From contig JBEKHY010000012.1 in assembly GCA_050012035.1 (NCBI GenBank), forward strand, positions 11,110 through 75,109: a stretch of DNA of 64,000 bases, given 5' to 3'. The notes under the pieces are model-generated. The model worked only from the letters and a program-made list of their open reading frames with translations, searched no databases and was not told the origin of the DNA. The translations under genes were made by a program, and so were the position numbers. Position 1 is the stretch's first letter; each line of letters begins with the position of its first letter. Shown piece after piece: positions 5,381 to 47,625 of this stretch. Source of the DNA: Verrucomicrobiota bacterium. Lineage in GTDB: Bacteria > Verrucomicrobiota > Verrucomicrobiia > Limisphaerales > UBA11358.

Positions 5381-6018
5381 GTGCGCACACGCCGACGGTT
5401 TTCATTGTGGACGACGACGCTTCATTTCTGGCAGCCGTGTCGCGGTTGCTGCGGGCGACGGGGCATCCGGTGAAAACTTTTTCATCGGCCGCCGAGTTTC
5501 TGAAATACCTACCGGCCGCCGGCCCAGGTTGCGTGGTGGCGGATCTGCAGATGCCGGGCTTGAGCGGCTTGGATCTGCAGGCGGCGTTGGCCAGAACCAA
5601 CAACCCTTTGCCGGTGCTTTTTCTCACCGGTCATGGCGACATTCCCACCTCGGTTCGCGCGATGCGCCAGGGCGCGGAGGATTTCCTTACCAAGCGCGCG
5701 CCCAAGGAGAAGTTGCTCGACGCCGTGAACCGCGCGCTTGCCCGTGATGCGCGTGAACGAGCCGCGCGCACGCGGGTTCAGGCGTTGCGCGCCCGCTTTG
5801 ACACGCTCACGGAACGCGAGCGCGAGGTGTTGCAGCACGTCATTCGCGGCCAAATGAACAAGCAGATTGCGGCGGACCTTGGCATCCATGAACGCACCGT
5901 GAAACTCCACCGCACCGCCATCACGACCAAGCTGGGAGTGCCGTCCGTGGCGGAACTGACCCGGCTCGCCCAGGAAGCGGGGCTGAGTGGCGAGTGGCAG
6001 GTGGCAAGTGGCAAGTGA
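5377..6018 (+). CDS. response regulator, REC + LuxR/FixJ-type HTH
   Basis: Receiver domain (VFIVDDD...DLQMPGLSGLDL...LTGHGD) plus HTH (LTEREREVLQHVIRGQMNKQIAADLGIHERTVKLHR). The last 10 codons and the TGA stop lie inside a heptad array. Confidence 0.9.
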   Translation: MSAHTPTVFIVDDDASFLAAVSRLLRATGHPVKTFSSAAEFLKYLPAAGPGCVVADLQMPGLSGLDLQAALARTNNPLPVLFLTGHGDIPTSVRAMRQGAEDFLTKRAPKEKLLDAVNRALARDARERAARTRVQALRARFDTLTEREREVLQHVIRGQMNKQIAADLGIHERTVKLHRTAITTKLGVPSVAELTRLAQEAGLSGEWQVASGK

Positions 6019-6113
6019 CGGGGAGAAACGCCACCCGCCACCGCCTTCAAGCTGCTCCCACCCTTCGGTATTTCCCGCCTCGCCACTCGCCACCCGCCAC
6101 TCGTCACTTCCCC
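5985..6113. repeat. inverted pair of heptad arrays (RRGTGRC x5 ... CGCCACY x5)
   Basis: 5985-6019 reads GAGTGGC GAGTGGC AGGTGGC AAGTGGC AAGTGAC. 6074-6113 reads CCCGCCT CGCCACT CGCCACC CGCCACT CGTCACT TCCCC. The two arms are imperfectly complementary. Confidence 0.85.
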
Positions 6114-12168: not shown

Positions 12169-12955
12169 ATCCCTCTTCGATCTTCCGTTGCTGATCACCG
12201 GCCCGGCGATTGTCGGGCTGCTGTGGCTGTTCGCCGTGGCCGGGTTGCTGCTGGTCCGCCGCCGCGTGCTGCCGCGCCTGCGCATTCAGGCGGCAGATTC
12301 GGAATTCAGCGGCGCCATGCTGCAGTCGGTGATGGTGTTCTATGGCCTGGCCGTGGCGCTGATCGCTATAAGCGTCTGGCAGACCTACTCGGATACCTCG
12401 AAGACCATTTCCGGCGAGGCCAGCGCACTGAACGCGCTTTACCGCGACGTGAGCAGTTATCCCGAACCGATCCGCCTGGACTTGCAGCAGGAACTTCGTG
12501 ACTACACGGATCAGGTCATCCATCAAGCGTGGCCATTGCAGCGGCGCGGACAAATTCCGATGGCCGGCATCGCGCACATGACCCGCTTCCAGGCGGTGCT
12601 GGACAAATTCGAGCCGGCCACCGAGGGCCAGAAACTTCTGCACGGAGAAACCCTCCGCGCCTATAACCTGATGATCCAGGCCCGCCGTCTGCGGCTGGAT
12701 GCGGTGAACACCGGCCTGCCGGGGGTGATGTGGGGCGTGATTGTGGTGGGCGCGTTCATCGGTCTAAGTGCCTCCTTCTTTTTCAAAGTGGAAGATGCGC
12801 GACTGCACGGAATCCAGGTGCTCCTCCTGGCGACGTTCATCGGTCTGGTCATTTTCATGATTTTCGCGCTGGACCAACCTTTTCGCGGCGACCTGGGACT
12901 GGGGCCGGAGCCGTATCAATTAATTTACGATCAGTTGATGAAAGTGAAGCAGTGA
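12161..12955 (+). CDS. membrane protein, DUF4239-like
   Basis: ORF 11987..12955. I chose ATG 12161, which overlaps the upstream stop by 8 nt (ATGTTTGA). It has N- and C-terminal TM helices flanking a soluble region. The family assignment is from memory. Confidence 0.6.
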   Translation: MFESLFDLPLLITGPAIVGLLWLFAVAGLLLVRRRVLPRLRIQAADSEFSGAMLQSVMVFYGLAVALIAISVWQTYSDTSKTISGEASALNALYRDVSSYPEPIRLDLQQELRDYTDQVIHQAWPLQRRGQIPMAGIAHMTRFQAVLDKFEPATEGQKLLHGETLRAYNLMIQARRLRLDAVNTGLPGVMWGVIVVGAFIGLSASFFFKVEDARLHGIQVLLLATFIGLVIFMIFALDQPFRGDLGLGPEPYQLIYDQLMKVKQ

Positions 12956-12986
12956 CAAGTGGCGAGTGGCAAGTGACAAGTGAACA
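12943..12986. repeat. heptad array (AGTGRCR) containing a stop codon
   Basis: AGTGAAGC AGTGACA AGTGGCG AGTGGCA AGTGACA AGTGAAC. TGA 12953-12955 terminates the DUF4239-like CDS. Confidence 0.85.
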
Positions 12987-23087: not shown

Positions 23088-24513
23088 ATTCAGAAAACTG
23101 GCAAGTGACGGGTGGCGGGTGACGAGTGACGGCCACTGGTCACTGATCACTGGCCACCTGCCACTTTGCCTGGTCTTTTTGCTCCTCACCCTCGGCACGG
23201 GTTGCCGCTTGCTGCAGAAGGCAGCGAATGCTCCGGGCCAGGCCGTCCATGCCGTCACGCCGGGCAAGAAGGACAAACACCCGGTGGACCCGGTGGAAGT
23301 ACAGCAAAAGCTGTTGCGCTTCGCCGACGAATACTCGATGCGGATGATTGGCGGCGTGGACAACCTTCGGCGCGGCACCAACGCACTGACTTCCGCCAAA
23401 GCGCTGCAAACGAAAATTGAGATCGGCTCCGAGACCTGGTCCATCGCCGCCGGCCCGAACGCCGTCGCCGATCTGCTCGACATGACCGTTTTTGTGACGG
23501 TGACGCGGATGGCGTTGGAGGAATATTGGCAGCCCAAGGTTTTTGGCGAATCCGCCCGGCCCTTGCTGGAATATTCCCGAAACGCCGAGGCGGAAATCTG
23601 GGAGCTGGCCGGCACGGTGCTGACGCCGGAGCAGCAGACGGAATTGCGCGGGGGAATTGCGGTGTGGCATAGCAAGAATCCGTTGCCGGAGAGCCTGGTG
23701 GCGGCGCGCGCGCTGGGTTTCGCTTCGCAAATCGCGGAGGCCGGCAAGGACGAGGAGGCCAAACCCGGGAGCGTGTTCAGTCTGCTTGGGGTTGATCCGC
23801 TTGCCGGCATGGACCCGGCCGTGCGCGAGATTGCCCAGACGCGGATGTTTGCCGAGCGCGCTCTCTTCGTGACCCAGAAGATGCCAATGTTGCTGCGGTG
23901 GCAGACGGAACTTTTGAGTCTCAACGCCGTGGAAATGCCCGCGGTGCAGCAGGTGGTCTCGAACTCCACACAAATTGCGGCGTCGGTGGAACGCTTCGCC
24001 GCCGTCGCCGAAAAACTGCCGGGACAGGTCAGCGCCGAGCGCGAGGAAATTCTCAAGGCGCTCCAGGTGCAGGAAAAAGATGTCGCGTCACTCATGTCGT
24101 CAGGAACGCAGTTTTCCGCTTCCCTGAACACGACGCTCACGACCCTCGATGCGTTGATGAAACGTTTTGGCGTTGGTGAAACGAACAGTGCCGGGCCGCC
24201 GAAGACCAATGCCGAACCGTTCCGTATTCAGGACTACACGCAAACGGCAGCGCAACTGGAAGTGACGGCACGACAACTGACCGAACTGCTCGTCACGCTC
24301 GACCAGACGCTCGGCTCGACCAATCTCGCGAAACTTTCGGCGCAAATCGGGCCGGTGGTTCAACAGGCGCAAACCGGCGGCAGGGAAATCGTGGATTATG
24401 CTTTCTGGAAAGGCATCCTGCTCGTGGTCATTGCGCTGTTGGCCGCTTTGATCTACCGCTTTCTTGTCGTACGCCTGTTTCCGCCGGGAAAAACCAAAAA
24501 CAACCCACCATGA
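23077..24513 (+). CDS. lipoprotein-like protein with C-terminal TM helix, unknown function
   Basis: The N-terminus is MRAKFRKLASDGWRVTSDGHWSLITGHLPLCLVFLLLTLGTGC. Residues 9-30 are encoded by a heptad array. The C-terminal helix is ILLVVIALLAALIYRFLVV. Confidence 0.5.
   Translation: MRAKFRKLASDGWRVTSDGHWSLITGHLPLCLVFLLLTLGTGCRLLQKAANAPGQAVHAVTPGKKDKHPVDPVEVQQKLLRFADEYSMRMIGGVDNLRRGTNALTSAKALQTKIEIGSETWSIAAGPNAVADLLDMTVFVTVTRMALEEYWQPKVFGESARPLLEYSRNAEAEIWELAGTVLTPEQQTELRGGIAVWHSKNPLPESLVAARALGFASQIAEAGKDEEAKPGSVFSLLGVDPLAGMDPAVREIAQTRMFAERALFVTQKMPMLLRWQTELLSLNAVEMPAVQQVVSNSTQIAASVERFAAVAEKLPGQVSAEREEILKALQVQEKDVASLMSSGTQFSASLNTTLTTLDALMKRFGVGETNSAGPPKTNAEPFRIQDYTQTAAQLEVTARQLTELLVTLDQTLGSTNLAKLSAQIGPVVQQAQTGGREIVDYAFWKGILLVVIALLAALIYRFLVVRLFPPGKTKNNPP
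23103..23165. repeat. palindromic heptad array (4x NNGTGRC then 5x GNYCACY)
   Basis: AAGTGAC GGGTGGC GGGTGAC GAGTGAC | GGCCACT GGTCACT GATCACT GGCCACC TGCCACT. The symmetry centre is at 23130/23131. Confidence 0.85.
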
Positions 24514-25637
24514 CAAAACAATCCAATCCCATGCGTCTCCCCACTCCCCACCCGCCACCCGCCACCCGCCACCTGCCACTTGGCCTGTGTCTCGCAGCGG
24601 CGACGCTGTTCACCGGTTGCGCTCATCTCGGTCCCAAGACCGTGGCCGTGGACCGTTTCGACTACAGCACGGCCATCGCCGACTCGTGGAAACAGCAGAC
24701 GCTCCTCAACATTGTCAAACTCCGCTACATGGACCTGCCGGTGTTCGTGGACGTGGCATCTATCGTCGCCGGCTATTCCATGCAAACCGGGGTGAGCGTC
24801 AACGGAACCCTCTCTTCTGAAAAGGCGATCCAGGGCAACTACCTGGCGGCGGGCGGACAAGCCATCTACACCGACCGGCCCACCATCACCTACGTCCCGC
24901 TGACCGGGGAAAAGTTCCTGCATGGATTGATCACCCCGATTGATCCGAAGAACATCTTCTTCATGCTCCAGGCAGGTTACCCGGCGGACTTCCTTCTGGG
25001 GCTGACCGTCGAGTCGCTCAACGGCGTGCGCAATCGTTCGACAGCGGGCGGCACGGCGCGGGAGGCGGACCCGGAGTTTATTCGCGCGCTCCAGTTGATG
25101 CGCGAAGTGCAGGCCGCCGGCGCGGTGGGGATGCGCGTGGAGGAGGACAAGGCCAGAGGCTCGACCGCCGTGCTGTTCTTCCGGCGTGACGACGTGCCCG
25201 CCGACATCGTGGAGAAAACGGCTGAAATCCGGCGGTTGCTCAAGCTGCCGGCGGATCAGCAGAAATTCGTGCTCACCTATTCGCCGGTGCGCGGGGCGGA
25301 CAATGAACTGGCCGTGAACAGCCGTTCCATGCTGCAAATCATGGGGGCCTTTGCCAGCTACCTGGACGTGCCGGAAGCGCACCTGAAAGACCACAGCGCG
25401 CTGCCCGCGTTTGAAAACGCCGCCCCGGAGAGCCGGCGGGACGCAGTGCGGATTCACAGCGGCAAGGAGAAGCCCGCGAACGCGTTCGCCGCCGTGCATT
25501 ATCACGGTTACTGGTTTTGGATTGACGACGGCGACTGGCAGACGAAACGCGCGATGACGGCGATCATGTTTTTCTTTACACTGGCAGAAACCGGCGACAG
25601 CGGGAAGCTGCCGTTGATCACCATCCCCGCGCAGTGA
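24510..25637 (+). CDS. lipoprotein, conserved hypothetical
   Basis: MTKQSNPMRLPTPHPPPATRHLPLGLCLAAATLFTGC has a lipobox. The n-region is encoded by a heptad array. The start overlaps the upstream stop (ATGA). Confidence 0.55.
   Translation: MTKQSNPMRLPTPHPPPATRHLPLGLCLAAATLFTGCAHLGPKTVAVDRFDYSTAIADSWKQQTLLNIVKLRYMDLPVFVDVASIVAGYSMQTGVSVNGTLSSEKAIQGNYLAAGGQAIYTDRPTITYVPLTGEKFLHGLITPIDPKNIFFMLQAGYPADFLLGLTVESLNGVRNRSTAGGTAREADPEFIRALQLMREVQAAGAVGMRVEEDKARGSTAVLFFRRDDVPADIVEKTAEIRRLLKLPADQQKFVLTYSPVRGADNELAVNSRSMLQIMGAFASYLDVPEAHLKDHSALPAFENAAPESRRDAVRIHSGKEKPANAFAAVHYHGYWFWIDDGDWQTKRAMTAIMFFFTLAETGDSGKLPLITIPAQ
24538..24579. repeat. heptad array (YCSCCAC x6) inside a signal-peptide n-region
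   Basis: TCCCCAC TCCCCAC CCGCCAC CCGCCAC CCGCCAC CTGCCAC. Confidence 0.85.
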
Positions 25638-29410: not shown

Positions 29411-30122
29411 TTTTCCCTCGTTCGCCCCGGTGCGACTTCTGGGGAAACCAGCGACTTTAGCCCCTATCTAACGGGGGATTCTCACTTTTACTTGTCGGTG
29501 GAGGAGAGACAGCAAATGGCCCGTTTTGACCGGCTGCGACCGAATTTTGTGTGTCGAGTTGTGTATCATCTTTTGACGGACGGCCATGCGGTGGAAATTC
29601 AGTTTCTCAATCGCTTCTTTCAACGGCGGCATAATCCCGAAATCCAGCGATTGATGGTCGTTCGAAGTGATGCTCTGACTTGGAGGGAAGAGGCGCGATT
29701 AAAATCCGGGCGGGATCCTCGCGTGTCTTGTCTATTAGAACTACAACTCAGGTATCATAATATTACGGTCCGACTATTTTTCTTGTATTTTAAACCAGCA
29801 TCAGGTAATGTGCGGCTCGTTCTGGGAAAGTCAGGCTGGGACGCGTCTACCTCATCCATCAGGCGATGAGCATTGTGGCACCAGACAGACTGCGGGCGAG
29901 CAGGACGAAGCGGAGCCAGGCGTTTGCGAGCTTCGTTTTCGCAGGAAGGCGTTGTGAGTTTCAGGGCAGCGAAGTCGGGGCGCCCTGCGTGTGCCTGGAC
30001 TCGTTGCTGTCATCGTTTTTCCGCCTCTGCTGGTTCACCTGCACAGCGGTTGCCCGGGAAAAGCCACACGTCGCGTGGCACCAACAGACGGTCCGATTGA
30101 TAACCAGAAAGGAGCAAACACC

Positions 30123-32780
30123 ATGAAGTTTAACACACCGAAGAATCTCATTCTTGTAGCGCCGGCGTTGGCCGCGCTGACGCTCAGTCTAGGTGTTGTT
30201 CAGCCGGTAAGAGGCGCTTCTTTCCTCTACACCGGCCCGCTAAACACCGCACGCGTTTCTCACACGGCGACGTTGCTGCCCAATGGCCAGGTGCTGGTCG
30301 CGGGGGGCGGTATCACCGGCAGCAGTCTGGCTGGCGCCGAGCTGTATGATCCGGCCAGCGGGACGTGGACGGCGACCAACTCGCTGAACACCGCACGCGA
30401 ATCTCACACGGCGACGCTGCTGCCCAATGGCCAGGTGCTGGTCGCGGGGGGCTGGGGCAACAGCGGCTATCTGGCCAGCGCCGAGCTGTATGATCCGGCC
30501 AGCGGGACGTGGACGGCGACCAACTCGCTGAATACCGCACGCGAGTCTCACACGGCGACGCTGCTGCCCAATGGCCAGGTGCTGGTCGCGGGGGGCTGGA
30601 ACGGCAGCAGTGTTCTGGCCAGCGCCGAGCTGTATGATCCGGCCAGCGGGACGTGGACGGCGACCGGCTCGCTGAACAACGCACGCGAGTATCACACGGC
30701 GACGCTGCTGCCCAATGGCCAGGTGCTGGTCGCGGGGGGCTGGAACGGCAGTAGTGTTCTGGCCAGCGCCGAGCTGTACGACCCGGCCAGCGGGACGTGG
30801 ACGGCGACCAACTCGCTGAACACGGCACGCTATGATCACACGGCAACGTTGCTGCCTAATGGCAAGGTGTTGGTCGCGGGGGGCTGGGGCGCCAGCGGCG
30901 TTCTGACCAACGCGGAGCTGTATGATCCGGCCAGCGGGACGTGGACGGCGACCGGCTCGCTGAAGATCGCACGCTCTGTTCACACGGCGACATTGCTGCC
31001 CAATGGCCAGGTGCTGATCGCGGGCGGCTATAACATCCTCAGCGGCTATCAGATCAGCGCCGAGTTGTATGATCCGGTCAGCGAGACGTGGACGGCGGCC
31101 GGCTCGCTGAACACTGCCCGCGGTAATCAGCCGGCGACGTTGTTGCCTGATGGGAAGGTGCTGGTCGCGGGGGGGTGGAACGGCAGCAGTGTTCTTGGCA
31201 GCGCTGAGCTGTATGATCCAGCCGGCGGGATGTGGACGGCGACCGGCTCGCTGAAAACCGCCCGCTATGATCATACCACCACATTACTGCCCAATGGGAA
31301 GGTACTGGTCGCGGGGGGCTGGACCAATACCAGCGGCTATCTGGCCAGCGCCGAGCTGTATGATCCAGCCAGCGGGACGTGGACGAACACCGGCTCGCTG
31401 AACACCGCACGCGGTGATCACACGGCGACGTTGCTGCCCAATGGCCAGGTGCTGGTCGCGGGGGGGTGGGGTGCCAGCGGCGTTCTGACCAACGCGGAGC
31501 TATACGATCCGGCCGGCGGGACGTGGACGAACACCGGCTCGCTGAACACCGGACGCTATCTGCACCCGGCAACGTTGCTGCCCAATGGGAAGGTGCTGGT
31601 CGCGGGGGGCTGGAACGATAGCGGCGGCTATCTGGCCAGTGCTGAGTTGTACGATCCGGCCAGCGGGACGTGGACGGTGACCGGCTCGCTGAGCACGGCA
31701 CGCGAGTACCCCACGGCGACGTTGCTGCCCAATGGCAAGGTGCTGGCCGCGGGCGGTTATAACAACGGCAGCGGCTATCTGGCCAGCGCCGAGTTGTATG
31801 ATCCGGCCAAAGGGACGTGGACGAACACCGGCTCGTTGAACACGGCACGCGAATTTCCCGCGACGGCGTTGTTGCCCAATGGCAAAGTGCTGGTCGCGGG
31901 GGGGTTTAACAATAACATCTACTATCTGGTCAGCGCCGAGCTGTATGATCCGGTCAGCGGGACGTGGACGGTGACCGGCTCGCTGAACACGGCACGCGAG
32001 TATCCCACGGCGACGTTGCTGCCCAATGGCAAGGTGCTGGTCGCGGGTGGTTATAAAAGCAGCAGCGGCTATCTGGCCAGTGTTGAGCTGTATGATCCGG
32101 CCAGTGGGACGTGGGTGGCGACCGATTCGCTGGACACCGCACGCGAGTCTCCCCCGGCGACGTTGCTGCCCAATGGCAGGGTGCTGGTCGCGGGGGGCTG
32201 GGGTACCAGCGGCTATCTTGCCGACGCCGAGCTGTATGATGTCGGTCTGGGCTTCAATGCCTCCTGGCGGCCGCAAATCGCCACGGTCACTTCGCCGCTC
32301 TTAAATGGTAGGAGCTTGGCGCTCACCGGCTCCCGGTTCCGAGGCGTGTCCGAAGGTTCGGGCGGCAATACTCAAGATTCACCGGCTGATTATCCGGTGG
32401 TGCAATTGCGGAGTTTGGGAAACGAGCAGACCTTGTTCTTGTCGCCCATGAATTGGTCAACGAATTCGTACAACTCCGCGCCAGTGACCGGTTTGCCGCC
32501 CGGCTATGCGCTGGTGACGGTGTTCGTCAATGGCATACCCAGCGCGGCGAGTATCCTCAGCATCGGTGCGCTGCCGCTGCTTAACATCACGTACTCCGGC
32601 AACAGCGTTGTCGTCTTCTGGCCATCGGCTTCGACGGGCTGGACGTTGCAGCAAAGGTCCAATCTGGCGGCAGGCAGTTGGGCCACCAACAGCTTTACCG
32701 TTTCCGACGACGGCACGAACAAGAGCATCACCATCACGTCACCAACGGGGAATCTGTTTTTCCGGCTGTATAGCCCATAA
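30123..32780 (+). CDS. secreted Kelch-repeat protein (about 14 blades) with C-terminal beta-sandwich domains
   Basis: ORF 29991..32780. I chose ATG 30123, preceded by AAAGGAG, giving a signal peptide MKFNTPKNLILVAPALAALTLSLG. There are 13 full ELYDPxSGTW..TGSLNTAR..HTATLLPNGxVLVAGG repeats plus flanking partial blades. Confidence 0.9.
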   Translation: MKFNTPKNLILVAPALAALTLSLGVVQPVRGASFLYTGPLNTARVSHTATLLPNGQVLVAGGGITGSSLAGAELYDPASGTWTATNSLNTARESHTATLLPNGQVLVAGGWGNSGYLASAELYDPASGTWTATNSLNTARESHTATLLPNGQVLVAGGWNGSSVLASAELYDPASGTWTATGSLNNAREYHTATLLPNGQVLVAGGWNGSSVLASAELYDPASGTWTATNSLNTARYDHTATLLPNGKVLVAGGWGASGVLTNAELYDPASGTWTATGSLKIARSVHTATLLPNGQVLIAGGYNILSGYQISAELYDPVSETWTAAGSLNTARGNQPATLLPDGKVLVAGGWNGSSVLGSAELYDPAGGMWTATGSLKTARYDHTTTLLPNGKVLVAGGWTNTSGYLASAELYDPASGTWTNTGSLNTARGDHTATLLPNGQVLVAGGWGASGVLTNAELYDPAGGTWTNTGSLNTGRYLHPATLLPNGKVLVAGGWNDSGGYLASAELYDPASGTWTVTGSLSTAREYPTATLLPNGKVLAAGGYNNGSGYLASAELYDPAKGTWTNTGSLNTAREFPATALLPNGKVLVAGGFNNNIYYLVSAELYDPVSGTWTVTGSLNTAREYPTATLLPNGKVLVAGGYKSSSGYLASVELYDPASGTWVATDSLDTARESPPATLLPNGRVLVAGGWGTSGYLADAELYDVGLGFNASWRPQIATVTSPLLNGRSLALTGSRFRGVSEGSGGNTQDSPADYPVVQLRSLGNEQTLFLSPMNWSTNSYNSAPVTGLPPGYALVTVFVNGIPSAASILSIGALPLLNITYSGNSVVVFWPSASTGWTLQQRSNLAAGSWATNSFTVSDDGTNKSITITSPTGNLFFRLYSP
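30225..32245 (+). repeat. intragenic tandem repeat, unit 144-150 bp (Kelch blades)
   Basis: GCCGAGCTGTATGATCC recurs at 30336, 30480, 30624, 30768, 30912, 31059 and onward. Units 30336-30479 and 30480-30623 differ at only 2 positions over their first ~115 nt. Confidence 0.9.
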
Positions 32781-39080: not shown

Positions 39081-40727
39081 TTGCCGCGCATGACGCCGCC
39101 TACCGTCGCGCCGACCGCGCCCTCCAGACTTTTCCAGCGGCATTGGTTGTGGTGGTTCATGGTGGCGACACTCGTCATCGTCGCCGCCGTCCGGCTCCGG
39201 CTTCTGAACCTTCCGCTGGAGCGCGACGAAGGCGAATACGCCTATGCCGGCCAGCTTATGCTTCAGGGCATCCCGCCCTACCAACTGGCCTACAACATGA
39301 AATTCCCCGGCACGTATGCCGCCTATGCGGTCATCATGGCGCTGTTCGGCCAGACGCCGGCGGGCATTCATTTCGGCTTGCTGTGCCTGACCACGCTGAC
39401 AGCGCTGATGCTTTTCTGGCTCGGCAAAAAAATGCTGGATGAAACGGCAGGAGCCGTTGCTGCTAGCGCCTACGCCGTGCTGGCGGCCTGCCCTTCGATG
39501 CTCGGACTTGCCGGACACGCCACGCACTTTTGCGCGCTTTTTGCCACCGCCGGTCTGTGCGCGATGTGGCTGGCACGGCAGAATGGAAACCGGCTGATCG
39601 CCCTGGCTGCCGGACTCCTTTTCGGCACGGCGGTTTTGATGAAGCAACACGCGGCACTGGTCGCGCTGTGGGCGTTGCTGGCTTGGTTGGTCTGGTGCTT
39701 CCGCAAAACCGGAATCTCCGTCGGCAAACGACTGGTGGCCATTGCGATTTTTGGTGCGGGAATTGTTCTGCCTTTTGCCTTGTGTTGCCTGATTCTCTGG
39801 CAGGCGGACATTTTCGACAAATTCTGGTTCTGGACCGTAAAGTACGGGTGGCAATACGCATCGGTCGTGCCGCTGGATCAAGCACCCGGACTGTTCTGGG
39901 AAGGCGTTCGTCTGGTGACCGTGAGATGTTCCTTGATCTGGCTGATTGCCGGGGCGGGGCTGGTCTGGCTTTGGTTCGATGAACGGCTGAGACCGTCCCG
40001 CCGGTGGTTTCTGGGATTCTGCCTCGCTTCCGTGCTGGCCGTTTGCCCCGATTTTTATTTTCGAAAACACTATTTTTTAATCACGCTGCCCGCGGTGGCG
40101 TTGCTGGCCGGCTGCGCCGTCAGCACGGCGAGCCGCCGGTGGGCGCAAAAGAATTGGGCTTCCTGGTTGAGCGGCTGGCCGGTCTGGGTGTGGGTGGCGG
40201 CGATTGCGTTTACGATTGCGGCCAACCGCGATATCTGGTTCCGGATGACGCCGGCGCGGGCCACGCTTGTAATCTACGGCGACGACCCGTTTGGCCAGGC
40301 GGCAATCATGGCCAAATACATCCAGCTCAACTCACCGCCCGACGCGCGCGTGGCCGTGATGGGCTCCGAACCGGAGATTTATTTTCTGGCCCGTCGCCAC
40401 TCGGCCACCGGCTACCTTTACACTTATCCGTTGATGGAACCGCAGCCGTTTGCGCGGAAAATGCAGGACGACATGATCAGCGAAATCGAAACCAACGCGC
40501 CGGAGTTTGTCATCTTTGCCGATAATCCGCTGTTCTCGTGGGCGCGCCAGCCCGACTCCAACCCGTGGATTTTCGAATGGTGGAATTCCTATCAGACCAA
40601 TTACGTCCGTGTCGGGCTGGTTGACGTGGTGTCGCACTCGGCAACCGTGTTCCGGTTTGGCGCGGAAGACGCGGCGCGCTACGGAAAAATCCGCGGACTC
40701 GGTCTGGAAACCTTTCAACGCAAATAA
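39081..40727 (+). CDS. membrane glycosyltransferase (GT39/ArnT/PMT_2-like)
   Basis: Multi-TM N-terminal domain with a first-loop motif LERDEGEYAYAGQ (the DE motif of GT-C enzymes), then a soluble C-terminal domain. Confidence 0.6.
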   Translation: MPRMTPPTVAPTAPSRLFQRHWLWWFMVATLVIVAAVRLRLLNLPLERDEGEYAYAGQLMLQGIPPYQLAYNMKFPGTYAAYAVIMALFGQTPAGIHFGLLCLTTLTALMLFWLGKKMLDETAGAVAASAYAVLAACPSMLGLAGHATHFCALFATAGLCAMWLARQNGNRLIALAAGLLFGTAVLMKQHAALVALWALLAWLVWCFRKTGISVGKRLVAIAIFGAGIVLPFALCCLILWQADIFDKFWFWTVKYGWQYASVVPLDQAPGLFWEGVRLVTVRCSLIWLIAGAGLVWLWFDERLRPSRRWFLGFCLASVLAVCPDFYFRKHYFLITLPAVALLAGCAVSTASRRWAQKNWASWLSGWPVWVWVAAIAFTIAANRDIWFRMTPARATLVIYGDDPFGQAAIMAKYIQLNSPPDARVAVMGSEPEIYFLARRHSATGYLYTYPLMEPQPFARKMQDDMISEIETNAPEFVIFADNPLFSWARQPDSNPWIFEWWNSYQTNYVRVGLVDVVSHSATVFRFGAEDAARYGKIRGLGLETFQRK

Positions 40728-40731
40728 TCCC

Positions 40732-42387
40732 ATGACTGTGCCACCCGAAAAGGACATTTTCCGCCAAACGGCATGGTGCGCGGCGATTTTGATGACCGCC
40801 GCCGCCGTCTGGCTGCATTTCTATTTTCTATTTCACGCCGGCGGCTTGTGGCGCGACGAAGTGCATGTTGTCAATCTCGCCGCCGGCCACTCCCTGAGCG
40901 ACCTGACCAAGGATTCATTTCCCGCGCTGATGCCGCTGCTGCTCCGCGGCTGGTCCGCCCTCGGCCTCGGGCAAGGCGATTTGAGTTTGCGGCTCCTGGG
41001 AATGCTGGTAGGGATCGGAATCCTGGCGGCACTCTGGGCCACGGCGTGGACGGCGCGACGGCCACCGCTCCTCAGCCTGGCGCTGGTGGGTCTGAACAGT
41101 CTGGTGATTTTTTACGGCGACTCGTTGCGCGGTTACGGCCTGGGCAGCCTGTTCATCCTGCTGACGATGGGGGCCGCGTGGGCATTTCTGAAGAAACCGA
41201 CCTGGGCGCGCGCCGGGATTCTGGCGGCAACGGCCATCTTGAGCGTGCAGGCGCTTTACCAAAACGCCGTGCTGCTGGCCGCCGTCTGCTTCGGCGCGTG
41301 GGTGATTTGCTGGCGGCAGGGAAATTTTCGCGCCGCCATGAAAATCTTACTGGCGGGGCTGGCCGCCGCCGCGTCGTTGTTACCCTATTGGAGCAACCTT
41401 GCCACGCTGCCGCAGACCAGCACGTCATTGCGCATGGGTTTTTATCCGGGCATTGCCTTTGGCAACTTCGATTCCATCGTTGCCTTTCCGCTGACGCAGT
41501 ACCTTTACGTCTGGGAATTTCTCGCGTTGGCGGTTGTCGGGTTTGGCGTCACGTCATTATGGCGCATGGCTTCGTCGAAATCCACCGCGCCGGCCGGTGG
41601 AGCTTCACCGGACGATTTGCGGTTGTTTGCCGCCGCCACCTTGCTGGCGGCGCTGGCCGGTCTCATCGGCTTTTTGTGGTATGCAGCGCTGCCGACCCAG
41701 CCGTGGTATTTCCTGCCGCTCGTGGTTTTGCTGGCCGGATGTTTCGATTTCGGCGTGCCGGTGATGTCGCCGCCGCGAACCTTCCGCGCCGCGGCGTTCG
41801 GGTTCATTGCGGCAACGGCGCTCATTGCGGTGCCGTTCGCGCAACGGGATTTGGACTGGCACTTCACCAACGTTGACCGGCTGGCGCGGCAATTGGCGGC
41901 GGAAGCCGCGCCGCAGGATTTCATCGTCGTCACCCCCTGGTTTTGCGGCATTACCTTTGAGCGTTACTTCAAGGCGCCGACGCCGTGGCAGACTTTGCCG
42001 CCGCTGGCCGACCATTCGCGGCACCGTTACGACCTGGTCCAGGAGCAAATGAAAACGCCCAATGCCCTGCAGCCCGTCTACGATGGAATCGCGGCCACGC
42101 TCCAGTCCGGCCACCGCGTGTGGGTGGTCGGGAACATGCAGATCCCCGAACCCGGCACGCCGTTACCGGGCGATCTGCCGCCGCCGCCGCTGAAACATTC
42201 CGGCTGGTCGGACCTGCCTTATTCCGGAAGGTGGGCGGCGCAGGCCGCCGGCTTCCTCGAAAATCACAGCCTCCAATTTGAGCGCGTGGATCATGAAACC
42301 AACGCCAACGTGAATTACTACGAAAGCCTGCAGTTATTCGAAGCCAGCGGTTGGAGAAATTCCGCCCCGGAAACAAACAAGCCCTGA
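40732..42387 (+). CDS. second GT-C-type membrane glycosyltransferase-like protein
   Basis: ORF 40507..42387. I chose ATG 40732, 5 nt after the upstream stop. The GGLWRDEVHVVNLA loop motif is followed by about 10 TM helices. Confidence 0.5.
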   Translation: MTVPPEKDIFRQTAWCAAILMTAAAVWLHFYFLFHAGGLWRDEVHVVNLAAGHSLSDLTKDSFPALMPLLLRGWSALGLGQGDLSLRLLGMLVGIGILAALWATAWTARRPPLLSLALVGLNSLVIFYGDSLRGYGLGSLFILLTMGAAWAFLKKPTWARAGILAATAILSVQALYQNAVLLAAVCFGAWVICWRQGNFRAAMKILLAGLAAAASLLPYWSNLATLPQTSTSLRMGFYPGIAFGNFDSIVAFPLTQYLYVWEFLALAVVGFGVTSLWRMASSKSTAPAGGASPDDLRLFAAATLLAALAGLIGFLWYAALPTQPWYFLPLVVLLAGCFDFGVPVMSPPRTFRAAAFGFIAATALIAVPFAQRDLDWHFTNVDRLARQLAAEAAPQDFIVVTPWFCGITFERYFKAPTPWQTLPPLADHSRHRYDLVQEQMKTPNALQPVYDGIAATLQSGHRVWVVGNMQIPEPGTPLPGDLPPPPLKHSGWSDLPYSGRWAAQAAGFLENHSLQFERVDHETNANVNYYESLQLFEASGWRNSAPETNKP

Positions 42388-42500
42388 TTTTTCGTACGGC
42401 CCCGGCTTGACGCCGCCGTCTGTCGCTGCGACCTTCTTTTCGCTTGGCGCAAAACGCGGCAGCGTCAGCGGCAGGCCCGTCCTCCGTAGCACTGCGGAGG

Positions 42501-45500
42501 GTGGACAACCTGTTCGCTGACATTGCGAAAGCTCCCGCCGTGCAATCCCTTGCCCGGCGACTGGAGGATGGCGGAGTGTTTACTTGCGCCGGCGTTTGCC
42601 AGGCAGCGCAGCCGTTTTTTGCCGTTCTCCTTCAAAATATTTTCTCGGACCAGCCACTCATCCTCATCACGCCGGATTTGAAAACGCAGGAAAATTTCCA
42701 CCAGGACATCGAAACGTGGCTCGATATGAGTCGAGTATCGGAAAAAACAGCAAGCGCGAACGCCGATTTCAGCTCTCGTCTCTCGACTCTCGACCTTCGA
42801 CCGTTGTTTTATCCCGCCTGGGAAATTTTGCCGCACGAAGGCAAGCTCCCGCACGCCGACACCATCAGCGACCGGTTGCAGACGCTGGTTTCACTCTCCA
42901 ACAATTCCGCACTCCGCACTCCGCACCCCATATTGGTCGTGACCAGCATCACCGCCCTTTTGCAGAAAACCTTCCTGCCCGGCGAAATCCAAAACCGCAC
43001 CCGCTCACTTCGCCGCGCCGATAAAGTAAATCCACTCGACCTGATTGAGTGGTTGGAGGAGCAGGGCTACGACCCTGAGGCGCAGGTCACGCAGAAGGGC
43101 GAAATCGCCTTGCGCGGTGGCATCCTGGACATTTGGCCGCTTATCAGTTCGTGGCCCGTGCGGCTCGAATTCTTCGGCGACGAACTGGAATCACTCCGCC
43201 ATTTCGATCCCCTCACGCAAATTTCGCGCGAGGAAATTTCGAGCGTCACAATTCCGCCCGCCGGCGAACTGGGAATGCTTATGAAGCGGCAGGTGACAGG
43301 TGACAAGTGGCATGACGAAGATTCTCCAGCCAGTAAGCCGAATCCTGTCACTCGTCACGTGTCACTGGCCACCCTCCTGGATTATCTGCCGCGCAAAGCC
43401 ATTTTCATTTTGTGCGAGCCTGAACAACTTTCCGTTCATGCCGACGAATACGCCCAACAAATTCCGGCAGACGACCCGTTTTTCATTTCGTGGCCGGATT
43501 TTCTCCTCGAATCAAACCGGCGCGGCTTCACCTCAATCGAGTTGACCGAAGAAATCGAAATCCGCGAAGCCAATCGCCAATCGGCAATCGGCAATCCGCA
43601 TTTCGCATCGCTCGACGCCTATCGTCCGCTGGCCGAACGCGCGCCGGAACTGCAAATTGCCGAGGCGCAGCGCCGCGAGTTCTTCCATCAACTCCATCGC
43701 TGGCTGCGACAGGGTTATGCGGTTCACGTCTTCTGCAACAACGACGGCGAACGGCAGCGGTTTGAAGAAATCTGGATGGAACTCGTGGGACAGGCTTCCA
43801 GCCTGTCTCCATCTGAAAAAGGCCCCCGGAAAGAAATTGGAGACAGGCGGGACGCCTGTCCTGCACTGCACCTCGGCATGCTTTCCCGCGGCTTCGTCTG
43901 CGAAGATGCCAAACTGGTCGTCGTCACCGACGCCGAGATTTTCGGGCGCTACAAAATCCAGCGGCCGCGCCGGCTCAAATCCCCACACGCGGCGGCGATG
44001 CGCTCGGCGCTGGAGATTGATTTCACAGATTTGGAGGAAGGTGACCTGGTCGTGCATCTGCAATACGGCATCGGCCGTTATCTCGGCCTGAAAAATCTGC
44101 CCGCCAGTTCGCGAACCGAAGCCCCAGATGCCAGACGCCAGACGCCAGATGCCGGCACGGAGTGCCTTGTCATCGAATACGCGCCCGCGAATCCCGGCGA
44201 TGAGCCGCCCAAACTTTACGTGCCGGTCAGCGAGGCGCACTTGGTCAGCAAATACGTTGGCGCGGGCAAGGCGCATCCGCCGTTGAACACGCTGGGCGGC
44301 ACGCGCTGGAAAAAGGCGAAGGCGCAGGCGGAACGCGCCGTGCGCGATGTCGCCGCCGAACTGCTGGCCATCCAGGCTGCGCGGGAAACACAGCCCGGCC
44401 ACGCCTTTGCGCCGGACGCGCCCTGGCAGCGCGAATTTGAGAGTGCGTTCATCTACGAGGAAACGCCCGACCAGTTCCGCTCCATCGTCGAAACCAAGGC
44501 CGATATGGAGCGCGCGAAACCGATGGACCGGCTGATTTGCGGCGACGCCGGCTTTGGCAAAACCGAGGTCGCCATCCGTGCCGCGTTCAAAGCGGTGATA
44601 GGCGGCAAACAAGTCGCCGTGCTCGTGCCGACAACGGTACTGGCCCAGCAACATTTCAACACGTTCCGCGAGCGCATGGCGGATTACCCCATGCGCATCG
44701 AATTGCTCTCACGCTTCCGCTCGCGCCGCCAGCAACAGCGTGTCGTGAAAGATTTGGCCAACGGCTCGGTGGACATTGTTATTGGCACGCACCGGCTGAT
44801 TCAAAACGACATCACCTTCAAGGAACTCGGTCTGGTCGTGATTGACGAGGAACAGCGGTTCGGCGTGTTACACAAGGAAAAATTCAAGCGCCTGCGCACA
44901 CTGGTGGACGTGCTCACGCTCAGCGCCACGCCGATTCCGCGCACGCTCTACCTTGCGCTCACCGGCGCGCGCGACATGAGCACCATCCAGACGCCGCCGC
45001 AGGATCGCTTGCCGGTCGAAACCATCGTCACCCAATTCGACGAGCGCGTCATTCGCGACGCCATTCAGCGTGAACTGAATCGCGGCGGACAGGTTTTCTT
45101 TTTGCACAACCGCGTGATGACCATTCAAACGATGGCCGACCGGTTGAAACGGTTGCAGCCGCACGCGCGCATCGTCGTCGGCCACGGCCAGATGGAATCG
45201 GACGAACTCGAAGAGGTCATGACGAAATTCGTCAATGGCGAGGCGGATGTTCTACTTTCCACGACCATTATCGAGAGCGGCCTCGACATTCCGAACGCGA
45301 ACACCATCATCATTGACCGCGCCGACCGTTTCGGTCTGAGCGATTTGTATCAACTGCGCGGGCGCGTCGGGCGTTACAAGCATCAGGCTTACGCTTACCT
45401 GATGTTGCCGCGCCATGTGAGCCTGCTCACCGATGTGCGCAAACGCATCAGCGCCATTCGGCAATACTCGACGCTCGGCAGCGGCTTCAAAATCGCCATG

Positions 45501-46082
45501 CGCGATCTGGAAATCCGCGGTGCCGGCAATCTGCTCGGCGCGGAACAAAGCGGCCACATCACCGCTATCGGCTTCGAGCTTTACTGCCAGTTACTCAAAC
45601 AAAGTATTGGCGCGCTGAAGGGTGAAAAAGTGAAACCGAGAGTGGACGTGGCAATGAAATTGGATTTCCTGAACCAGTCAGTCGTCAGTAGTCAGTCGTC
45701 CGTAGCTACTGACTACAAACCATTGACCGCTGACAAATCTGCTTCCCTTCCTCACCACTACATCACCGAACCGCAACACCGTATCGAAATCTACCGCAAA
45801 CTCGCACAGGCGACGGACAAGCTGGCGCTGGAAAATTTGCAAACGGAATTGCGCGACCGCTTCGGTCCGTTGCCGCCGCCAGTAGAGTTGCTCTTGCTCG
45901 TGGCCGAACTGAAAATTCTCGCCAGCGAAAAAGCCGTGACTGCCATTGAAGTGAAGGATGACAAGCTGATGCTCACGCGCTACGGCGATTTCCTCACGCT
46001 CGGTGGCAAATTCCCGCGACTCACGAAAAAGGACGCCAAGGCGCGGTTGAAGGAAATCAAGAAACTGCTGCTGGCGATCTAG
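42501..46082 (+). CDS. mfd: transcription-repair coupling factor Mfd
   Basis: ORF 42444..46082. GTG 42501 is the likely start, since the upstream codons are a REP hairpin. Motifs [36 protein letters not shown] and QLRGRVGR are present. The ORF carries several in-frame repeat cassettes. Confidence 0.9.
42775..42802. repeat. heptad array within mfd
   Basis: CTCGTCT CTCGACT CTCGACC TTCGACC. Confidence 0.8.
42906..42926. repeat. three perfect TCCGCAC heptads within mfd
   Basis: TCCGCAC TCCGCAC TCCGCAC. Confidence 0.85.
43291..43372. repeat. inverted heptad arms within mfd
   Basis: AGGTGAC AGGTGAC AAGTGGC (43291-43311), then 33 nt, then CTGTCAC TCGTCAC GTGTCAC TGGCCAC (43345-43372). Confidence 0.85.
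43551..43613. repeat. nine-unit heptad array within mfd
   Basis: GAAATCG AAATCCG CGAAGCC AATCGCC AATCGGC AATCGGC AATCCGC ATTTCGC ATCGCTC. Confidence 0.8.
43787..43861. repeat. two GC-rich REP-like hairpins within mfd
   Basis: GGGACAGGCT-TCC-AGCCTGTCTCC (43787-43810) and GGAGACAGGCG-GGA-CGCCTGTCC (43839-43861). Confidence 0.8.
44124..44151. repeat. heptad array within mfd
   Basis: CCAGATG CCAGACG CCAGACG CCAGATG. Confidence 0.85.
45680..45714. repeat. heptad array with internal inverted repeat, within mfd
   Basis: AGTCGTC AGTAGTC AGTCGTC CGTAGCT ACTGACT. GTAGTCAGT and ACTGACTAC are complementary. Confidence 0.8.
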
Positions 46083-46274
46083 CGCCGGAGGTGCGACAGA
46101 CAGTAGCCCACGGTGAAACCGTGGGAAAACGAGGGTTGGATTCAAGCCCCGGACGGGGCGAAAGAAAATTCCCATCATCGTCCGAATCTGCCGCCCCTGC
46201 CGGGGCTTTGCGCGTTTTGACGAACGAACCCACGGCTACCGCCGTGGGCTATTTTCTTCCGCGCCTCCGGCGCT
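46081..46274. mobile_element. MITE-like nested palindromic element (about 194 nt, no ORF)
   Basis: The terminal inverted repeats AGCGCCGGAGGTGCG (46081-46095) and CGCGCCTCCGGCGCT (46260-46274) match at 14 of 15 positions. The sub-terminal hairpins are CCCACGG-TGAAA-CCGTGGG and CCCACGGC-TACC-GCCGTGGG. The central inverted repeat is AAGCCCCGGACGGGGCG ... CGCCCCTGCCGGGGCTT. Confidence 0.55.
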
Positions 46275-46275
46275 G

Positions 46276-46350
46276 AAAATTGCACCTCAAACAAAATCGG
46301 ATGCCAGGGCGCGGCTGAAGGAAATCAAGAAACTGCTGCTGGCGATTTGA
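46276..46350 (+). repeat. orphan diverged duplicate of the last 25 codons of mfd
   Basis: It translates to [24 protein letters not shown], against [24 protein letters not shown] at 46008-46082. The last 51 nt are 46/51 identical. Confidence 0.85.
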
Positions 46351-46548
46351 GTTTGGGGAGCGCAGCCGCCCTCGGCTGCGGTTCGACGCGCCTTCGCGGC
46401 GAACACCGTGATGAGCCTGTGTCAACGACGAGGCGTCGTTGGCGGCACGCGAGGCGCGTGCGCTCCTGTTTCAAATCACGCCCGGTTGTAGATTGCCAGC
46501 AATGAAAAAGACTCGCGGATAAGCTGTCCTCGCTCCTATTTTCTCCGC

Positions 46549-47625
46549 GTGCATCTGGCCCATTTGCGACTCCGCGACTTCCGCAATTACGCGCGGTTGG
46601 ACGTGGATTTCGCGCCCGGCTTCCATCTGCTGCTCGGCGACAACGCGCAGGGCAAGACGAACATCCTCGAAGCGGTTTATCTCATGGCCACGCTGCGCTC
46701 GTTCCGTGGCGTCGGCGGCGCGCAGATAATCCGGCACGGACAGAAAGGCTACTTCGTCGGCGGCAATGTGGTGGGGCAGGGCGAGCACGAAATCAAAATT
46801 TACTGGTCGGCGCGCGAACGCAAACTGGCGCTGGATGGCCAGCCGGTGAGAAAACTTTCCGACTATCTCGGCGTGCTGCGCGCGGTGGTGTTTTGCACGG
46901 AGGATGTGCACCTGGTCAAGGGCACGGCCCGCGCACGCCGGCGGTTTTTGGATTTGCTGCTGGCACAGACGCAGCCCCGTTATCTGCCGCTGCTCCAGCG
47001 TTACCTGCGCGCCGTCCGCGCCCGCAACGCGTTGCTGAAACAACACGCCGTTGATGAAGCTGCACTCGACAGTTTCTCGCAGGAGCTGGTGAAGCTCGGC
47101 GATGAAATCGTCCGCGCCCGGCGTGAACTGGTGCCGAAATTTTCGCCGCTGGCGCGCCTCGCGTATCGCCGTGTTTCCAACGACGCCGAGGAATTGCGTA
47201 TTGAATATCAGCCAAGCGTGAAGAAGGATTTCGCCGTCGAACTCGCGCAATCCCGTGCCCGCGAGCGGACGTATCGCTTCACGCTCGTCGGGCCGCACCG
47301 TGACGATTTGCAATTGCTGCTCGACGAAAAATCCGCCGCGCAGTTCGGCAGCGAAGGCCAGAAACGCACCCTGGCCATCGCCTTGAAAATGGCGCAGGCG
47401 GAATATCTGACCGGCATCCATGGCAGTCCGCCGGTGCTGTTGATTGACGACGTGATGGGTGAGCTGGACGAGAAGCGGCGCGCCGGTTTCCTGCCGTTGC
47501 TGGAACAGGCGCGCAGAACCCACGGCCAGGTCTTCATGACTGCCACCGGGGAAAACTGGCCTTGCGAGCTGGGCAAAGATTTGCAGAAATGGGAAGTGAT
47601 AGCCGGAACTTTATTGAAACACTAA
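46549..47625 (+). CDS. recF: DNA replication and repair protein RecF
   Basis: GTG start. MHLAHLRLRDFRNY, Walker A GDNAQGKTNILEA, and C-terminal LLIDDVMGELDEKRR. Confidence 0.9.
   Translation: MHLAHLRLRDFRNYARLDVDFAPGFHLLLGDNAQGKTNILEAVYLMATLRSFRGVGGAQIIRHGQKGYFVGGNVVGQGEHEIKIYWSARERKLALDGQPVRKLSDYLGVLRAVVFCTEDVHLVKGTARARRRFLDLLLAQTQPRYLPLLQRYLRAVRARNALLKQHAVDEAALDSFSQELVKLGDEIVRARRELVPKFSPLARLAYRRVSNDAEELRIEYQPSVKKDFAVELAQSRARERTYRFTLVGPHRDDLQLLLDEKSAAQFGSEGQKRTLAIALKMAQAEYLTGIHGSPPVLLIDDVMGELDEKRRAGFLPLLEQARRTHGQVFMTATGENWPCELGKDLQKWEVIAGTLLKH

Follow-up and report, generated by a model that had tools for sequence, protein, structure and literature searches.

We describe a verrucomicrobial gene for the transcription-repair coupling factor Mfd in which seven hypervariable segments consist of short repeats that are translated without breaking the reading frame. 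The gene lies in a stretch of 64,000 nucleotides (nt) of contig JBEKHY010000012.1 (hereafter the window), from a soil or peat Verrucomicrobiota bacterium of the UBA11358 lineage. Tandem arrays with a 7-nt period and a double palindrome make up its seven islands, S1 to S7, and related genes carry other repeats at the same seven sites. We think it probable that a genome-wide process generating heptad arrays and palindromes overwrote seven tolerant loops of the protein, that recombination between alleles moved the resulting cassettes, and that selection let pass only what kept the frame, contained no stop codon and could be tolerated.

An uninterrupted mfd gene

The reading frame of mfd is unbroken from either TTG 42444 or GTG 42501 to the stop codon at 46082. 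Counted from TTG 42444, as are the island residue numbers below, it has 1212 codons, and S1–S7 sum to about 156 of these.

42501–46082, plus strand: mfd, transcription-repair coupling factor, 1193-amino-acid (aa) product from GTG 42501, as called in public data

The product matches the solved Mfd structures of M. smegmatis (6ac6, E = 4e-211, residues 122–1169) and E. coli (2eyq, E = 1e-202). Its translation contains the helicase motif QLRGRVGR, and its Pfam domains follow the canonical order UvrB_inter, CarD_TRCF_RID, DEAD, Helicase_C and TRCF, located as follows.

Residues 189–274 of the window Mfd: PF17757
Residues 530–605: PF02559
Residues 694–834: PF00270
Residues 873–978: PF00271
Residues 1099–1178: PF03461

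From these matches we predict a full-length Mfd with a UvrB-interaction module, a domain interacting with RNA polymerase (the RNAP-interacting domain, RID), superfamily 2 (SF2) translocase motifs and a C-terminal TRCF (D7) domain. Between the window and L159, an independent metagenome contig from another sample, the mfd core differs by 108 synonymous and 22 non-synonymous codon changes and is therefore strongly constrained; by its sequence, the gene appears functional. L159 aligns with window positions 39444–47573 over 8130 bp at 96.9% identity without a gap. The window's own Mfd cluster comprises ten distinct sequences from many contigs and sources, nine at 98–100% identity to the window protein and one (P0126) at 95%, and S1–S6 are common to all. 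A preliminary description of this DNA had reported an uninterrupted Mfd ORF (open reading frame) with helicase motifs, as we find, and every peptide that it quoted is present in the translation. It had also raised the possibility of a chimeric assembly at the cassettes; the gap-free match to L159 and the agreement of the ten cluster sequences at S1–S6 indicate that they are not an artefact.

Seven repeat islands in the window gene

Tandem Repeats Finder (TRF) located six period-7 arrays in mfd, at 42773–42794, 42906–42926, 43290–43309, 43569–43596, 44124–44153 and 45677–45700, compared with a mean of 0.056 and a maximum of 2 in 500 codon shuffles of the gene. The heptads stand head to tail and exceed chance, as tandem heptamer simple sequence repeats do. 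Together with the double palindrome, the six arrays group into seven islands.

S1: 42726–42803, plus strand, residues 95–120; CTCTCGA/CCTTCGA array at 42773–42794 (TRF), continuing to about 42808, with a degenerate left arm
S2: 42894–42932, plus strand, residues 151–163; three perfect TCCGCAC units at 42906–42926 (TRF)
S3: 43284–43372, plus strand, residues 281–308; hairpin with GTGRCRR heptad arms at 43286–43311 and 43347–43372, read as QVTGDKW...NPVTRHVSL
S4: 43548–43613, plus strand, residues 369–386; CAATCGG/GCCAATC array with core 43569–43596 and 4–5 clean units (TRF)
S5: 43782–43862, plus strand, residues 447–473; doublet of inverted 24-nt palindromes at 43788–43811 and 43838–43861, resembling a REPIN (a doublet of repetitive extragenic palindromes, REPs, forming a hairpin), read as GQASSLSP...GDRRDACP
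S6: 44100–44159, plus strand, residues 553–572; 4.3 units of CCAGACG at 44124–44153 (TRF), within the RNAP-interacting domain
S7: 45669–45740, plus strand, residues 1076–1099; GTCAGTC/CAGTCGT array at 45677–45700 with an inverted ACTGACT arm (45703–45734), in the D6–D7 linker

The preliminary description had counted eight cassettes and seven heptad arrays; the repeats are real, and the count becomes seven islands with six TRF arrays. Its three perfect TCCGCAC units were recovered by TRF, and in S2 they are read in three frames, giving SALRTPH. Its nine-unit array at 43551–43613 exists as an array, with 4–5 clean units and degenerate flanks in place of nine units.

Three islands also have significant secondary structure, and in none of 200 dinucleotide shuffles of each was the native fold equalled. 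An inverted arm pair noted earlier near 43291–43311 and 43345–43372 corresponds to the S3 arms at 43286–43311 and 43347–43372 (minimum free energy, MFE, −38.0 kcal/mol, z −3.5). Two GC-rich hairpins placed at 43787–43861 correspond to the S5 arms (MFE −48.6 kcal/mol, z −7.0), which are 92% complementary, lie 26 nt apart and each form a hairpin by themselves. The S7 fold spans 45677–45734 (MFE −25.1 kcal/mol, z −4.0). S3, S5 and S7 are thus palindromic repeats in frame within a conserved ORF that is kept open. The window copies of S1, S2, S4 and S6 had no significant fold against dinucleotide shuffles and are plain direct arrays. All z-scores for window cassettes refer to dinucleotide shuffles; those for relatives' cassettes, given below, refer to mononucleotide shuffles and to control segments. 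As candidate internal terminators or promoters the cassettes were rejected, with counts equal to those in shuffles.

Shared sites and changing content across the clade

We surveyed 160 DNA loci (2.09 Mb) from Limisphaerales/Pedosphaera-type metagenome-assembled genomes (MAGs) and from peat and soil metagenome contigs; 143 of the 160 mfd copies were complete, and the array census within mfd uses these. The best 120 protein matches were Verrucomicrobiota Mfds of 1139–1262 aa with 73–98% identity. Their alignment is 90–100% conserved nearly throughout, except at seven hypervariable, length-variable islands that coincide with the window cassettes. Over the 2.09 Mb there were 739 period-7 arrays, compared with 82 of period 6, 74 of period 8 and 83 of period 10, an excess of about tenfold. 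The 143 mfd genes held 523 of the period-7 arrays (1.0/kb) and the flanks 141 (0.10/kb), and all except about six of the 523 fell within the same seven sites. Every one of the 143 complete copies is open through all seven islands.

What occupies a site differs between relatives, so the cassette sequences are lineage-specific, as had been predicted. S2 is built from TCCGCAC, CGGCAAT, TCAACYC, CCGCAAT or CAAAACT units, and S1 is reduced to near nothing in some relatives (WLGASPLFY) and holds GTCGAGA/CTCGACC hairpins in others. Heptad-armed hairpins at the islands of relatives also include TCCAAAG/CTTTGGA and CCACAGT/ACTGTGG, besides GC-rich palindromes. Relatives also have the window's S4 unit (CAATCGG/GCCAATC) at their S2 and S6 sites, and L110 has it in one of its flanking genes. 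Although unrelated in sequence, the relatives' cassettes had z below −2 in 65% of cases at S7, 55% at S5 and 47% at S4, compared with 1–29% for control segments.

The arrays fade with distance. Genes with a core identity of at least 0.80 have 4–4.5 arrays each, those at 0.70–0.75 have 1.6, and those below 0.70 have none. In the last group, the distant Verrucomicrobiota L061, L062, L067 and L058 carry non-repetitive linkers of similar total length (143–148 aa) at all seven sites. Linkers of similar length in distant relatives mean that the variable sites are ancestral and that the repeats overwrote rather than created them. On this comparison, the permissive sites appear ancestral and their repeat content specific to the clade. 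The earlier proposal that the cassettes would prove ancestral if distant orthologues had residues at the same positions is accordingly answered in two parts: the sites are old and filled by non-repetitive linkers, and the repeats that now fill them are lineage-specific.

Two further observations concern the surveyed records. Eleven of those with this Verrucomicrobiota-type mfd (64–80% identity; L010, L021, L024, L033, L038, L044, L059, L064, L072, L075 and L077) bear GTDB titles of Bifidobacteriaceae, Bifidobacterium, Acidiferrales, Acidoferrum, Sulfopaludibacter, Terracidiphilus or Akkermansia muciniphila, and bin contamination or mislabelling is likely. The broken mfd copies, that of L051 among them, are either real off-variants or repeat-associated assembly errors.

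Length steps, cassette replacement and recombination

Between close relatives, mfd is essentially free of indels outside the islands. In 13 close pairs all indels fell within the seven sites, with the exception of one 9-nt indel near residue 609 (L011/L097). In the pair L090/L092, which has 7 mismatches in 3.5 kb, the sole length difference is 21 nt in the S6 array; in L147/L042 it is 21 nt in an S3 array, and L002/L090 also has a 21-nt indel, in the S3 left arm. Twenty-one nucleotides are exactly three heptads and the smallest step that preserves the frame. Length polymorphism among related strains, proposed earlier as a check on the cassettes, therefore exists in the form of three-unit indels between close genomes. 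Pairs of out-of-frame indels that compensate each other were also seen inside islands. Within the window's own cluster of ten sequences, no length change was found at S1–S6.

Whole cassettes are also exchanged. Per-site identity between related genes is bimodal, either at least 0.9 or 0.3–0.7. The number of replaced or resized sites is 0–1 of seven at a fourfold-site divergence of about 0.03, 2–4 at about 0.1 and 5–6 at 0.15–0.2. Flanks adjoining replaced cassettes were more diverged than flanks adjoining kept ones in 9 of 14 pairs, and part of the replacement appears to be allelic import. Mismatches between the window and L159 are unevenly spread (0.3–1% over 40344–43343, and 5–10% over 43644–45443 and 46644–47543), which suggests recent recombination between strains. 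P0126 has an S7 cassette identical to that of the L102 lineage (~80% identical), together with a more diverged C-terminal part (window 45669–46079); it could be a recombinant allele or a chimeric contig.

Composition and constraint

In the island peptides, Ser is over-represented 3.3-fold and Asn and Pro 2-fold each; Tyr, Phe, Ile, Trp, Met, Val and Leu are under-represented. We first quote a signal of conservation that was rejected: against fourfold sites over the whole gene, kept cassettes seemed strongly conserved (1.9% vs 11.4%, p = 1e-9; pooled p = 1e-13), and this nearly vanished against local flanks. The gene-wide comparison was discarded because the window and L159 have diverged to very different degrees in different parts of the gene. 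Compared with third positions of the 40 core codons on each side, kept cassettes differed by 5.8% vs 7.1% at third positions (p = 0.07). Over all positions they differed by 4.8%, with the three codon positions about equal. Thus, the islands evolve almost neutrally, with no codon-position signature of protein selection beyond staying open.

The filter against stop codons has left a visible local trace: in CTACTGA arrays, the unit that would set TGA in frame reads CTACAAA. Covariation in the S7 hairpin was examined in 12 alignable unique sequences, which were mostly invariant or changed on one side, and no convincing compensation was found.

Placement in the Mfd protein

Mfd consists of modules joined by long flexible linkers, and its D3 is non-conserved and lineage-specific (PMC7864632). 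Aligned with the E. coli protein, the islands fall as follows.

S1: replaces residues 66–70, about +23 aa
S2: after residue 101, +5 aa
S3: aligns with about 224–253, no net gain
S4: in the poorly conserved D1b/D3 region and not alignable
S5: aligns with about 403–425 in D3, +4 aa
S6: between T505 and G506 in the RID, +13 aa; an insertion also relative to M. smegmatis
S7: D6–D7 linker, about 991–1008, about +17 aa

Six of the seven islands lie outside Pfam domains, S7 directly N-terminal to the TRCF domain at 1099–1178. The remaining one, S6, stretches the 57-position RID profile to 76 residues. The preliminary description had placed the cassette starting at 44124 where E. coli has only a short loop, correctly so: here 13 residues stand between GMTTLEAGGIT and GEYLML, an insertion relative to E. 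coli. Its general view of the cassettes as insertions fits S1, S2, S6 and S7, which add net length; it does not fit S3 and S5, which are about as long as in E. coli, and S4 is unalignable. An AlphaFold2 model built with 51 close homologues was poor (mean predicted local distance difference test, pLDDT, 52.8; predicted template-modelling score, pTM, 0.42), and low-confidence segments in its better N-terminal half and at its C-terminus coincide with S1–S5 and S7. Frame-selected events and tolerant surface loops had been offered as alternatives, and both operate: 21-nt steps survive, and the islands have low pLDDT, are rich in Ser, Pro, Asn and Gly, and in six of seven cases lie outside domains.

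Repeat families outside mfd

The repeats in mfd belong to families that also occur outside genes, which bears out the view that non-coding-type repeats are being translated in frame. Heptad units found inside mfd make up 125 of the 1172 possible units, and 55% of the arrays outside mfd use them. The S3 arms are members of a GTGRCRR family that has seven loci in the window and 23 overlapping matches, against 0.28 expected. Its six further loci are found where genes begin or end, or in the gap between convergent ORFs.

3147–3172: GTGRCRR locus
5987–6019 / 6082–6107: GTGRCRR loci
12952–12984: GTGRCRR locus
23098–23164: GTGRCRR locus
24547–24586: GTGRCRR locus

Several of these loci were observed just upstream of genes or at their first codons, and one inverted pair stands between convergent ORFs. 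After ATG 23077 and ATG 24510, the family would be translated as N-terminal extensions ahead of signal-peptide-like segments, unless the true starts lie downstream. Among the window cassettes, only the S3 family has further copies elsewhere in the 64 kb.

S5 has the form of a REPIN, with palindromes of about 20–25 nt arranged as an inverted doublet around a short spacer. Its palindrome has 10 matches outside mfd, at six loci in five genomes (L105, L040, L015, L009/L097, which are one genome, and L013), in the form GTAGGACAGGCG..GCCTGTCTCC, spacer, GGAGACAGGCG..GCCTGTCCTAC. These copies start with GTAGGACAGGC and end with GCCTGTCCTAC; the window copy has GTGGGACAGGC, a GTGG variant. From this layout, S5 appears to have the anatomy of a GTAG-type REP or REPIN.

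In the window, mfd is the sole gene with heptad arrays deep inside its ORF, the others lying in spacers or at gene termini. In the clade, such repeats are not restricted to this one housekeeping gene. In the flanks of the 160 loci, a pseudouridine synthase-methyltransferase fusion has internal arrays that recur between its two domains, and others were seen in RecG, MutL, an O-antigen ligase and a zinc alcohol dehydrogenase.

L002:18640–20382, minus strand: gene with internal arrays
L110:7650–9446, minus strand: gene with internal arrays
L027:19633–21789: gene with internal arrays
L059:3389–5527: gene with internal arrays
L070:20581–22629: gene with internal arrays
L020:2–1912: gene with internal arrays
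L025:10488–11726: gene with internal arrays

Repeat colonisation is thus general for modular proteins of the clade, and mfd is the most loaded gene in the sample, at about 25 times the array density of other coding sequence. A repeat pool pre-adapted to coding was considered and rejected: 82% of arrays outside mfd were free of stops in all frames, against 76.5% expected, which is no signal.

Two neighbouring features of the window complete the description. An ORF directly 3' of mfd (46549–47625) is presumably recF-like, judged by eye from its N-terminal sequence. Inside the ORF 29991–32780, positions 30231–32240 consist of 13.8 copies of a 144-nt unit (81% matches), which by eye resemble Kelch-type 48-aa repeats.

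Origin of the islands

The DNA of this clade is rich in 7-nt arrays, often as pairs of inverted arms, and in GTAG-type palindrome doublets, and the repeat families of gene ends and spacers are also those found in the seven islands of mfd. The islands of close relatives differ by 21-nt steps and by wholesale replacement of cassettes, and throughout they are stop-free, in frame, near-neutral and rich in Ser, Pro, Asn and Gly. We suggest that slipped-strand mispairing in a 7-nt register would make and resize the arrays, that palindromic cassettes would arrive by transposition-like or gene-conversion copying from dispersed copies, and that homologous recombination through the conserved core would shuffle cassettes between lineages. 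Purifying selection would purge frame shifts, stops and hits in folded domains, so that only seven permissive sites fill. Mfd may be hit often because it is long, modular, flexibly linked and probably weakly expressed.

Several points weigh against this account. No target-site duplications were seen and no transposase or REP-associated tyrosine transposase (RAYT) came up, none having been searched for, so the copying of palindromes is a step that we only infer. Within the 64 kb of the window, S5 is the only copy of its doublet. For the roughly 25-fold array density of mfd relative to other coding sequence, the account calls on a presumed tolerance and a presumed low expression. The counts over 143 genes lack phylogenetic independence, and the placement of the islands rests on alignment to solved Mfds, on Pfam and on the poor model with a mean pLDDT of 52.8. 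Finally, the strong hairpins of S3, S5 and S7, and those in 47–65% of relatives at S4, S5 and S7, could mean selected structure.

A first alternative, which we consider unlikely, is that the cassettes are kept for their nucleic-acid structure. Stable mRNA or DNA hairpins between domains would hold back the ribosome or RNA polymerase and so help the modules to fold during translation, or would autoregulate mfd, and the peptide would be incidental. The z-scores of S3, S5 and S7 (−3.5, −7.0 and −4.0) fit this idea, as do the excess of folded cassettes in relatives at S7, S5 and S4 (65%, 55% and 47%, against 1–29% in controls), the position of the islands at module boundaries and the return of hairpin-type cassettes to the same sites despite sequence turnover. 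However, S2 and S6 are never structured, S1 and S4 are unstructured in the window, some relatives are nearly empty at a site (WLGASPLFY at S1), and distant relatives have non-repetitive linkers. Kept cassettes are near-neutral under the local divergence control, and the S7 hairpin lacks convincing compensatory changes. Moreover, the same elements occur in spacers, which makes the hairpin shape a trait that belongs to the repeat family rather than to the sites in mfd.

A second alternative regards mfd as a contingency locus, in which adding or dropping one or two 7-nt units would shift the frame, reversibly switch Mfd off and tune evolvability, with recG and mutL behaving likewise. The unit is not a multiple of three, the tracts lie within the ORF, and arrays occur in RecG and MutL of relatives. 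In an Illumina MAG (L051:670–790), S2 is short of one 7-nt CGGCAAT unit and the gene is frameshifted; the cassette sites, 13% of the gene, contain about six of ten frame breaks in broken MAG copies, which also include L054, L057, L060 and L074. Mfd also influences mutagenesis and has been termed an evolvability factor (PMC6320318). However, slippage should be rare in tracts that are imperfect and as short as 3–4 units; 143 of the 160 copies are intact; the ten window-cluster sequences are constant in length at S1–S6; the broken copies are mostly from MAGs assembled from long reads, a data type prone to indel errors; and polymorphisms between close genomes are frame-preserving 21-nt steps. We judge the contingency locus very improbable. 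The related picture at population level, in which seven slippage-prone tracts act as a reversible switch and peat and soil populations mix Mfd-on and Mfd-off cells, modulating transcription-coupled repair and mutagenesis (with recG and mutL possibly alike), seems to us hardly less so.

Could the islands be ordinary low-complexity linkers shaped by point mutation and codon-level indels, with the 7-nt period incidental? In favour, the seven sites of distant relatives all hold linkers of similar length, and the composition is typical of disordered linkers. Against this, the dominant period of 7 is not a codon period (6 arrays against 0.056 expected), identical units and palindromes are present in non-coding DNA, indels come in 21-nt three-unit steps, and the three codon positions change at equal rates. 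Such an origin is already largely refuted by the period-7 counts and by the repeat families shared with non-coding DNA, and we would give it scarcely any weight. An assembly artefact or chimeric joining is the least credible of all, for although repeats are classic sites of misassembly and P0126 could be a chimeric contig, the 8130-bp match to L159 from another sample is gap-free, cluster sequences from many contigs and sources agree at S1–S6, and 143 independent genomes or contigs keep the frame through all seven islands.

Significance

This gene gives an unusually detailed view of repeat DNA colonising a conserved multi-domain repair protein without breaking it. There are seven fixed landing sites and dozens of alternative cassettes, about half of the sites are replaced by roughly 10% synonymous divergence, and the 21-nt steps make a frame filter visible. 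Mfd is under consideration as an anti-evolution drug target, and the islands are natural maps of its insertion-tolerant positions. They are also usable as hypervariable strain markers, and they cause trouble in annotation and assembly through frameshifted MAG genes and N-terminal extensions.

Comparison with known systems

The case is clear but not unprecedented, as in-frame palindromes in verrucomicrobial repair genes were reported in 2013. Di Nocera et al. described GTAG/CGTC REPs in frame within known genes, most numerous in the verrucomicrobium Opitutus terrae, where the GTAG tag is mutated to GTGG; the GTGG tag of the window S5 is similar (PMC3733652). Over-represented hosts were uvrA, uvrB, uvrD, polA, recBCD, dnaE2, ligase and pseudouridine synthases, and the intragenic REP dimers encode 20–30 aa (PMC3733652). 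Those authors considered either neutral placement in flexible linkers or modified repair function or mutability (PMC3733652). mfd is absent from the text and tables of that paper (PMC3733652), and most cassettes described here are tandem heptad arrays or heptad-armed hairpins, unlike classic REPs. The seven recurrent sites in one gene over an order-level clade, with measured turnover, are new here. Our results thus extend the 2013 report of in-frame REPs to tandem heptamers, to mfd and to a whole clade of uncultured soil and peat bacteria.

Like REPINs, which are mobilised by RAYTs (Bertels and Rainey 2011, PMC3116915), S5 consists of two inverted palindromes of the same type that form one long hairpin across a short spacer, with dispersed copies in related genomes. 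Unlike them, it lies in frame within a gene and has one copy in the window. The Rickettsia palindromic elements (RPEs; Ogata et al. 2000, 2002) are described in a review (PMC10969869) as selfish palindromes that sit in frame in housekeeping genes, are translated and are judged compatible with the protein fold. They too lie in conserved ORFs that are kept open. According to the same review, RPEs are about 100–150 bp long, fall into ten defined families with conserved peptides and belong to an intracellular alphaproteobacterium (PMC10969869). In contrast, the cassettes here are 20–90 nt long and mostly of period 7, their peptides differ between relatives, and they are quickly replaced at fixed sites.

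Heptanucleotide tracts of Haemophilus are phase-variable contingency loci (PMC8262952). The mfd arrays resemble them in having units that are not multiples of three inside an ORF, where loss of one unit shifts the frame (L051), and differ in that the tracts are short and imperfect and the variation almost all frame-preserving.

Heptamers are cited as the most over-represented class of long simple sequence repeats in bacteria, with polymerase slippage as the proposed cause of the 7-nt register (Mrazek 2007, as cited in PMC4692102 and PMC4679880). Examples are the short tandemly repeated repetitive (STRR) sequences of cyanobacteria, the GGGAATC-type repeats of Xanthomonas and Nostoc and TAACTGA of Beggiatoaceae; such repeats are reported to be intergenic, under-represented in coding regions and usually dominated by one unit (PMC4692102, PMC4679880). 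For heptanucleotide repeats in Verrucomicrobia, our literature search found nothing specific. The arrays described here share with other bacterial heptamers a lineage-specific excess, typically 2–6 copies, some inverted pairs, positions near gene starts and ends, and length variation among close relatives. With the cyanobacterial STRR sequences they share tandem heptanucleotides; the units differ, the host is verrucomicrobial and the arrays are intragenic. Unlike the known heptamer repeats, they comprise many different units and lie deep inside an essential-type ORF, where they are read in three frames. What is new is the combination of heptamers translated in three frames inside a conserved gene, seven recurrent sites across the clade and a quantified turnover with a 21-nt quantum.

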